Below, one piece after another: positions 11,727 to 44,998 of a stretch of DNA of 64,000 bases; positions within the stretch are counted from its first letter, which is position 1, and each line of letters starts with the position of its first letter. The stretch is from Octopus vulgaris (Eukaryota), in contig OX597818.1 in assembly GCA_951406725.2 (NCBI GenBank), positions 99,820,001-99,884,000 of the forward strand, read 5' to 3'. The translations under genes and the position numbers were made by a program. A model generated the notes under the pieces. The model was not told where the DNA came from, made no database searches, and saw only the letters and a list, made by a program, of their open reading frames with translations.

Positions 11727-12598
11727 CGAAATGGTATCAGAACATTCCCGAACTAGTTCTCTAGCGTACCTACACATGACAGCACACGCATGCGTGCGTA
11801 GTGAGGGCTACCAGTAACATTCAAGATGTAATGTGCTGAGTGACTTTGTTGTGTTTAGTTTGCAAGTGAAATCAGTGTTTTTGTGATCACGTGTATGCTA
11901 TAAGGATTTTTGTCATAGACAGGAATTTAGAACAATGAGCCAACATGAAATTTTGCATTAAACTTGGGAAGTCTGCTACAGAGACATTGAGCATGCTTCG
12001 GCAAGCTTACGGCGATGAGGCACTGTTTTGAGGCAATGTTTTGTTTGGCATGTGTGCTTCAAAAGGCACGGCAGCGCCACAGCTCTATCAAGAGCATGCT
12101 CATCGCTTCTTTTTTCAACATCCGCTGTATTAAGCATCGAAAATACGCTCTCCAGTGCCAGAGAGTTCTCTTGCGATGTTTGAAGCGTTTGAGGGAAGAT
12201 ATTCGGCGAAAGCGACCGGGTTTGTGGAGCATGAAGAATTTGATTCTTCATGACAACAAATCGCCCTGTGACCAAGCTCTCTTCACTCTTGAGTTTCTCG
12301 CCAAAAACAACACGGTATCGCCACGGTGCCCGCCCAATTCGCCAGATTTAGCACCTGCGGACTTCCATATCTTCCACACGAGGAAAATGAAACTCTAAGG
12401 TTACCGTTTAATACCGTTCTCGAGATATGGACCGAATCGCAGAAGTTTCTCAACTCACCTACGGAAAACGACTTCCGGGTCAGATCCCCGAAGTACTGCG
12501 CAATCTGATTATTCCGAAGGAGATGATGCTAAAAGTCAGCTTAGTAAGTTATATTTTATTAAACATTACTACTCTGAGAACTTTTAGATACCATCTCG
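11727..12598 (+). mobile_element. Internally deleted mariner (DD34D-type) transposon remnant
   Basis: Imperfect TIRs cgaaatggtatcagaacattccc / gagaacttttagataccatctcg with TA at the left; N-terminal EQ*ANMKFCIKLGKSATETLSMLRQAYGDEAL and C-terminal LILHDNKSP...PPNSPDLAPADFHIF (HDNA and YSPDLAP motifs); stops and deletion. Confidence 0.9.
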
Positions 12599-13631: not shown

Positions 13632-13679
<48 letters not shown>

Positions 13680-13695
13680 ATGAGTCATTGCTTAC

Positions 13696-13773
13696 CTGGT
13701 TTTGTGATTTGGAAATTGATGGAATAATACAACATCCATGGTAACACGAATGGAAATTTGAAAATGAACTTAC
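13696..13773 (-). CDS. Candidate 78-nt exon (phase 1-1 frame [25 protein letters not shown]) or recursive-splicing cryptic exon
   Basis: Minus strand: tctttgttttctcatttaattgtAG|GTAAGT...aaaacCAG|GTAAGC; frame is open. Confidence 0.45.
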
Positions 13774-14014
13774 CTACAATTAAATGAGAAAACAAAGACA
13801 AATAATTAGAATTGGTGAAACTTCAGGTAAAGTAGGTACAGCAATAATACAAAGACACACAGGGTATATATATATATATTACTGATCAGTGGAGAATTTC
13901 ATGCGTGGACAACAGTTAACTTCGTACAAACAAACGTAGCCTTGGATTGTCGTAGGTGGCAGATATACGGACATACATGGATGTTGCAGGGGTCTTGCAA
14001 CATCCATGTATGTC

Positions 14015-14015
<1 letters not shown>

Positions 14016-23259: not shown

Positions 23260-23705
23260 GACAATTTAAAGGGAATTCAAAGTTGTGTGTTTCATTCGTT
23301 TTTCTGGGTGTGTATATTAAATAGAGACAAATGACTGAACATCGGCTAATAACCAATTGCTTGCGAAATTGATTATCGGTGCATGAGTAGTGGCAAATTC
23401 TTCGCTTCAACACACGTATGTTTTAAGATGATCAACAGCGTGAAAATGAGCATCAGTTACAACATTAGCAACTCACTTCATTTAGAATAATTGCAATAAC
23501 GAGGAGAGCAACACGTTAGCCATCACAATCAGTGACCTTACCTACATACGAACGAGAATAGATGCGAAAAGATACTACGGGTAAAGTAGAGAAGTGCCTC
23601 ACCTGATCAAAATACAGATACGCAACAAACTTTACACACACACACAACAGGCCCACACACATATATATGTAGGAAGTTATAAGTGTGAGTATGTGTGTGT
23701 ATGTG

Positions 23706-44189: not shown

Positions 44190-44998
44190 TTATGCAAACT
44201 GAACCAAGTTATTACTTGAGAGAGACAGAGAGAGAGCAGTTTATTAAAATTAGCCGTCCTCAGCTTTCGCCATGCTCTCAAGACCGCTCATGAACCTGCC
44301 CCATGCTTTCCTCGCTGTGTCGCTGGGAAGATCATCGAACACCACCTTGATCATAGTAACAAGCTCGGCTTTCGTGTGGCAGGTAGTTCGGTTGGCATCT
44401 CTTTTAATTACCTCCCCTCCCCACACAGAACTGTTGGAATTAAGGGGACAAAAATTAGGGCTAGTGAAGTCGTAGAAATTCTCCGACAACCAATTTTGAC
44501 GCATTCCGGTTGTATGGTGAGCAGCCCAATCCTGTTGCCATGCATGTGACCATCCACCAACAACGCTCTCTAGTCAGGGATTAATTAAGCATTCCAGCAG
44601 TTTTATATGACTGTCTGAAGTGAGTCTAAGTCCCTGTTTAAAGATGCGGGGTGAATTCTGGCGTGCGTACGTAATGAGAACGGTTGTTATGCCTACTGGT
44701 CACGGTTTTGTAGTCTCCATTGCAGATGCCTATGCTACGACTTACAGTCTTTACACTGTTCACAGAGCATTAAGTATCAGCTATGAGGTCGGCAACTTGA
44801 TAGCCGGCGCAAATCCTTATGATACAGGTAACTGTTTTACAATATTCAATGGCATCCAGTCCCCCACGTCAGCTAAAGATTTTCTATAAAACATCTTTAA
44901 TCTCCATGCTCAGCAACGTCGTTGACTCTTCACCGATACATTATAACTGTTCCCGAAAAAAGGACACATAAACATATTCAAATGTAACCCGAACAGCC

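Follow-up and report, generated by a model that had tools for sequence, protein, structure and literature searches.

A candidate recursive splice site with a cryptic exon in a giant 5′ intron attributed to turtle/IgSF9 of Octopus vulgaris

Ratchet points that carry cryptic RS-exons have been described in the Drosophila genes Ubx, kuz, Bx and luna (bioRxiv 10.1101/006163; PMC8605326), and the ratchet donors of flies and mammals are generally stronger than the donor of the cryptic exon (PMC8605326). The human gene CADM2 has a first intron of 767 kb that is divided by two recursive sites, RS1 and RS2 (bioRxiv 10.1101/2025.08.14.666599). Shepard et al. 2009 (PMC2773006) compared large introns of sea urchin, bee, beetle, mosquito and fly and reported, for the sense strand, an excess of 0.48-2.2 RP sites per 100 kb; the accessible portion of their text covers no mollusc and does not deal with cryptic exons. 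A literature search, which most subscription journals lay beyond, found no report of recursive splicing in molluscs or octopus. A site with the same anatomy is described here from Octopus vulgaris. Its sequence and surroundings make it likely that position 13773 is a recursive site in some transcript. With somewhat less confidence, it is probably a recursive site with a cryptic exon in a 5′-UTR intron of turtle/IgSF9 that spans at least 576 kb.

The window analyzed is a stretch of 64,000 nucleotides (C5:99,820,001-99,884,000) of the 2.8-Gb assembly, in which position 13773 is C5:99,833,773. Read directly on the minus strand from 13796 to 13690, it contains a tract, then TAG, GTAAGT and, after 78 nt, CAG|GTAAGC (Table 1). 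The preliminary description had reported an acceptor fused to GTAAGT and a second donor 78 nt downstream, and both were confirmed letter by letter. AGGTAAGT occurs once in the 64-kb window when both strands are searched. The region 13660-14000 is single-copy, its sole match in the genome being itself, which rules out a repeat origin for the site. The cryptic donor matches U1 at 9 of 11 positions. The intronic parts of the rebuilt and cryptic donors tie at six U1 matches each, and the full strength of the rebuilt donor would depend on the end of the upstream exon. The tract at 13773 is weaker than those at three of its four sister sites and falls outside the strict genome pattern considered below.

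Table 1. Features of the site at window position 13773 and of the series to which it belongs (positions without a prefix are those of the window)
Feature	Position	Strand	Remarks
Branch-point candidate CTAAT, A at -33 from acceptor	13805..13809	-	sequence; use putative
Polypyrimidine tract, 15/20 Y, AG-free, TT at -6/-5	13777..13796	-	sequence
3′ splice site TAG	13774..13776	-	sequence
Putative recursive 5′ splice site GTAAGT, fused to acceptor	13768..13773	-	sequence; one of five co-oriented sites in 1.064 Mb
Candidate 78-nt cryptic RS-exon	13696..13773	-	frame 1 interrupted by a stop; frames 0 and 2 open
Two ATGs inside the 78-nt segment, one in ACCATGG	13733..13739	-	sequence
Second donor CAG|GTAAGC, at the end of the candidate cryptic exon, GT at 13695	13690..13698	-	sequence
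Series site 1	C5:100,154,241	-	donor 48 nt downstream; stops in all frames
Series site 2	C5:100,061,974	-	donor 101 nt downstream; stops in all frames
Series site 3	C5:99,905,547	-	donor 137 nt downstream; stops in all frames
Series site 4 (window 13773)	C5:99,833,773	-	donor 78 nt downstream
Series site 5	C5:99,675,849	-	donor 54 nt downstream

Several other features of the window were recorded. At 13970-14015, some 200 nt before the acceptor is reached, there is a hairpin whose stem measures about 20 bp and whose loop measures 7 nt (region z -3.95). Pairing of the cryptic exon with an arm of this hairpin (11 nt in common) was considered and rejected: of 702 background positions, 32 gave as good a match, and the hairpin stays closed in the predicted fold. 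Two weaker fused sites occur on the minus strand 61 nt apart, at 23602 (CAG|GTGAGG) and 23541 (TAG|GTAAGG); they fail the TT rule given below, and a second cryptic exon between them is possible. By eye, 11979-12530 and 44250-44580 resemble decayed mariner-type transposase frames, with no Pfam match at 0.01.

The neighborhood of the site was searched with an acceptor rule that required TT-N-YAG, at least 13 pyrimidines in 20 and no AG nearby, a site being counted if GTAAGT followed. Across 1.064 Mb, GTAAGT followed 5 of 621 acceptor-like sites on the minus strand and 0 of 598 on the plus strand, with 0.16 expected per strand. The Poisson probability of this excess is 7.6e-7, or 2.4e-5 without the index site; these values are optimistic because the acceptor rule was set after the sites had been seen, and the donor rule and distance window were likewise post hoc, only a set of 40 genomic sites (below) being held out. 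Widening the region to 1.264 Mb added no further site (5 of 767 minus-strand against 0 of 734 plus-strand acceptors). The distances from the first site through to the first coding exon of turtle are 92, 156, 72, 158 and 98 kb, 576 kb in total, which is equivalent to 0.87 sites per 100 kb on the sense strand and none antisense. ATGs are present in four of the five cryptic segments.

To place the series in the genome, the strict pattern Y10-NNN-YAG-GTAAGT was used, and 188 matches were found (98 of them read backwards). Raw enrichment is only modest, because control patterns with GTAACT or with a purine tract reach 129 and 165 matches, respectively. The sites examined were 70 of the 188, comprising the first 30 and then the next 40 listed, with the one in the turtle locus left out. 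Class and controls differ more clearly in their anatomy. TT at -6/-5 was found at 49 of these 70 and at 4 of 41 controls with the same tract (2/30 and 2/11; p = 2.7e-10). The GTAACT control contains a repeat family; a further control, YAG-GVAAGT, had 389 matches, with a single repeat accounting for 20 of the first 30 loci, and only the 11 distinct loci were taken from it. At a distance of 25-105 nt downstream, a strong donor was present at 25 of 70 class sites and at 5 of 60 controls (2/30 and 3/30; p = 2.9e-4). The rule-making set contributed 14 of 30 to this count and the held-out set 11 of 40, the latter against a background of 7.1% (p = 7.8e-5); compared with the controls, the held-out sites alone gave p = 0.013. 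Branch-like motifs accompanied 36 of 70 class sites, compared with 10 of 30 and 8 of 30 controls. Among the class members with a downstream donor (n = 26), the cryptic exons have a median length of 49 nt (range 29-115), and their lengths modulo 3 are distributed 7/9/10, with no frame preference. Better acceptors were not richer in downstream donors (15/39 against 10/31), and gapped genome patterns, with 6 matches against 3, were too narrow to inform.

The strict sites are also clustered. Among 100 listed sites there were 17 neighboring pairs closer than 700 kb, compared with 4 and 4 in the controls once one tandem duplicate had been dropped, and 13 of the 17 were on the same strand (p = 0.025). 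Same-strand pairs or trios 117-390 kb apart were noted at C3:9.64/9.75 Mb, C5:10.73/11.00, C6:97.12/97.26, C8:15.10/15.24, C8:50.88/51.02 and C9:104.96-105.62, and such groups likely mark other giant introns. The strict pattern catches just one of the five sites at the turtle locus, and so by extrapolation the class may total several hundred. These observations are consistent with fly-type recursive splicing throughout the octopus genome, at somewhere between a hundred and several hundred ratchet points, with cryptic exons of about 50 nt and steps of 70-160 kb, and with removal of an at least 576-kb 5′ intron of turtle via five of them, in parallel with human CADM2; we give this general proposal an even chance of being right.

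Even if such a class is real, 13773 by itself could be a chance or decayed motif in AT-rich DNA: its tract is weaker than in most class members, scanning many windows for motifs will turn up such sites, and, judging by the controls, some of the 188 strict matches are background. This seems improbable, however, since only about 0.02 acceptor-like sites followed by GTAAGT are expected by chance per 64-kb window with both strands counted, and 13773 is on the correct strand, in a place where the series would without it have a gap of 230 kb. A strong donor at 78 nt, where the background is 7-9% per 80 nt, and the candidate branch point at -33 also argue against it.

The gene downstream of the series was examined as the possible host. 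A minus-strand Ig V-set exon was found at C5:99.402 Mb with Pfam. Of 185 candidate proteins, 9 matched it, including isoforms from octopus and a turtle homolog from Haliotis. This Ig1 exon is 100% identical to an octopus protein with Ig and FN3 Pfam families (P0001) and 51% identical to the Haliotis turtle homolog A-like protein, and a member of the same protein cluster is named turtle homolog B-like. A PDB search with the Ig exon gave generic Ig matches only. The turtle protein of O. sinensis maps by 13 exon matches to C5:98.91-99.49 Mb on the minus strand, and the exon that encodes its first 16 residues, also on the minus strand, lies at C5:99,577,875 behind a strong acceptor. By its Ig and fibronectin III families and its likeness to named homologs, the gene is assigned to turtle/IgSF9, a type marked by a signal peptide, Ig and fibronectin III domains and a transmembrane segment. 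The first coding introns of turtle measure 87, 88 and 198 kb, similar to the spacing of the series.

Some further features of turtle were observed. The gene is represented by three models in the O. vulgaris protein set (P0004, P0014 and P0013) and by a single full-length protein in O. sinensis and O. bimaculoides. An alternative first coding exon at C5:99,274,092-99,273,872, on the minus strand inside the 198-kb intron, has its own hydrophobic N-terminus and skips Ig1; it matches the O. bimaculoides protein P0020, and the start of protein P0024 is similar. The same 198-kb intron contains, on the minus strand, TTCAG|GTAAGA at C5:99,289,932 and, 124 nt on, a strong tract with TTTCAG|GTGAGT at 99,289,808. 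Either could be a ratchet point, the second being ambiguous. The acceptor of the first coding exon is itself followed directly by GT (AG|GTGTCA), which makes a weak fused donor.

The position of the turtle first coding exon behind an acceptor means that the transcript must start further upstream and needs an upstream donor. From this, and from the strand and spacing of the sites, we infer that the series belongs to turtle. The preliminary description had proposed a ratchet point, followed by a cryptic exon, inside a very long intron of a minus-strand transcript; that proposal is now supported at the level of DNA by a five-site series, a putative host on the same strand and a fly-like class. 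A start of the transcript at 36.8 kb, as had been proposed, was not supported: one has to go 71.8 kb upstream, out of the window, to meet the next such site, and the series reaches +334 kb, so that the intron probably begins far beyond 36.8 kb. Two of the upstream donors that had been named also lacked support: 20158 is at best weak (TAT|GTACGT) and 17684, the letters behind the donor given as 17685, reads TAG|GTGAGT with nothing further behind it.

Alternatively, 13773 could be a true recursive site of another minus-strand transcript, either non-coding and long or from a gene that lacks annotation; it might start at the TATA/Inr set near 36.8 kb, which includes the third of the donors named earlier, 36690. 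At 36846-36689 on the minus strand there is indeed a single-copy set of TATATAA, TCAGT about 30 nt on and CCG|GTAAGC, possibly a minor promoter and first exon. The turtle first coding exon is 256 kb from 13773, and neither the CpG profile nor scans for TATA, Inr and donor singled out a first exon. However, TATA-Inr sets are frequent by chance (57 in 1.264 Mb, 7 of them with a donor), the first coding exon of turtle requires an upstream donor in any case, and the series keeps the same spacing right up to that exon. A scan of reading frames of at least 60 aa with Pfam from C5:99.578 to 100.384 Mb took in 230 minus-strand frames (all retained) and 150 of 264 on the plus strand, after repeats and low-complexity frames had been prefiltered and 9 frames over locus borders dropped; within these limits, and with the scan blind to exons in shorter frames, no other cellular gene was detected between the turtle exon and 100.384 Mb. 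Its matches were to reverse transcriptase, endonuclease, transposase and GIY-YIG, with two CCCH-finger frames and four weak matches below the cut-off. The two CCCH zinc-finger frames are related, lie on the minus strand (L078:7231-7728 and L155:4165-4746) and are probably retroelement ORF1. A home-made exon predictor applied to 664 kb returned 118 candidates, 62 against 56 by strand, with no bias and no gene. Taken with these results, an origin in another transcript is unlikely.

The nature of the 78-nt segment was considered separately. An ordinary coding exon would be compatible with its length and its open frames 0 and 2, yet this reading is scarcely credible. The first coding exon of turtle has 27 untranslated nucleotides ahead of its ATG with an in-frame TGA among them, and the segment therefore cannot extend the turtle protein. 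The peptides of the segment begin none of the octopus turtle proteins examined, frames 0 and 2 match nothing in Pfam, and no partner coding exons were seen with the exon predictor or in the reading-frame scans. The frame-1 peptide presumably resembles a FAX/metaxin-like GST protein, and a first coding exon of such a gene was rejected, with no fitting next exon within 100 kb and five PF17172 matches on C2, C4 and C6.

A more serious alternative is that the acceptor is real and the segment is an expressed 5′-UTR exon of turtle, constitutive or alternative, which starts with GTAAGT and tunes translation through its two upstream ATGs. Expressed RS-exons are common in mammals. Partial inclusion is a live rival because the cryptic donor is strong; one ATG lies in the context ACCATGG, and the 78 nt, a multiple of three, exceed the length in 23 of 26 class members and so fall in the upper tail. 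Inclusion in a 5′ UTR would leave the frame intact, and Drosophila alleles of the Bx 5′-UTR ratchet point are viable (PMC8605326). Against this, five successive exons with a GTAAGT start are unexpected of ordinary exons (0.16 expected). With a junction to the first coding exon assumed, both ATGs are computed to be out of frame upstream of the turtle start and open two uORFs, one of 24 codons that stops on the main ATG and one of 64 codons that reads across it. An expressed exon is accordingly a minor possibility.

The preferred reading, a recursive site with a cryptic exon in the 5′ intron of turtle, implies the following course of events. As transcription proceeds, a first exon placed beyond 100.154 Mb would be joined to one site after another. 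At each, the donor further on, 78 nt away in the case of 13773, would define a short cryptic exon and so allow the acceptor to be recognized. The join would rebuild exon|GTAAGT, and the rebuilt donor would outcompete the cryptic donor, so that the segment is dropped and removed together with the next piece of intron. Six or more such steps, each taking out 72-158 kb, would remove at least 576 kb, and the 78 nt, if kept, would add two out-of-frame upstream ATGs. These steps are modeled on Drosophila; the site anatomy, the series, its strand and the acceptor-bearing host exon are what was seen directly in octopus.

If confirmed, recursive splicing with cryptic exons would reach molluscs and so be shared by insects, vertebrates and lophotrochozoans. 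This would suggest a way in which cephalopods process neural genes of very great length, with a ratchet spacing that grows with genome size, and it would imply a turtle transcription unit of more than 1.2 Mb. The analysis yields 70 candidate sites that were examined and exact coordinates for five predicted junctions.

In Drosophila, as in octopus, the acceptor is fused to a consensus donor and a downstream donor closes a short exon, of about 50 nt in flies and with a class median of 49 nt in octopus (PMC8605326 for the fly). There are multiple sites per intron in both, 1-6 in the fly and five here, and the Bx site, like the presumed octopus case, lies within a 5′ UTR (PMC8605326). The cryptic donor in octopus is strong (9/11), whereas in flies and mammals the ratchet donor generally wins (PMC8605326). 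The scale also differs: the fly segments reported are 2.6-63.6 kb in introns of up to 133 kb (bioRxiv 10.1101/006163), whereas those in octopus would be 72-158 kb over a span of at least 576 kb, with steps up to 2.5 times the longest fly segment. The octopus density of 0.87 per 100 kb, with none antisense, was obtained with a rule that differs from that of Shepard et al. 2009 (PMC2773006). The fly sites are backed by junction reads, saw-tooth coverage, lariats and conservation, whereas the octopus site was recognized in the DNA sequence.

CADM2 is a member of the Ig superfamily, as is turtle/IgSF9. Human CADM2 resembles turtle in being a neuronal cell-adhesion gene with a huge 5′ intron and a recursive exon after each site (bioRxiv 10.1101/2025.08.14.666599). 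It is a different gene, with two sites compared with five in octopus, and its RE1 poisons through a premature stop, whereas the penalty in octopus would be the upstream ATGs in the 5′ UTR. Because the mechanism is already known, the octopus locus would represent an extension of it rather than a new kind of system.
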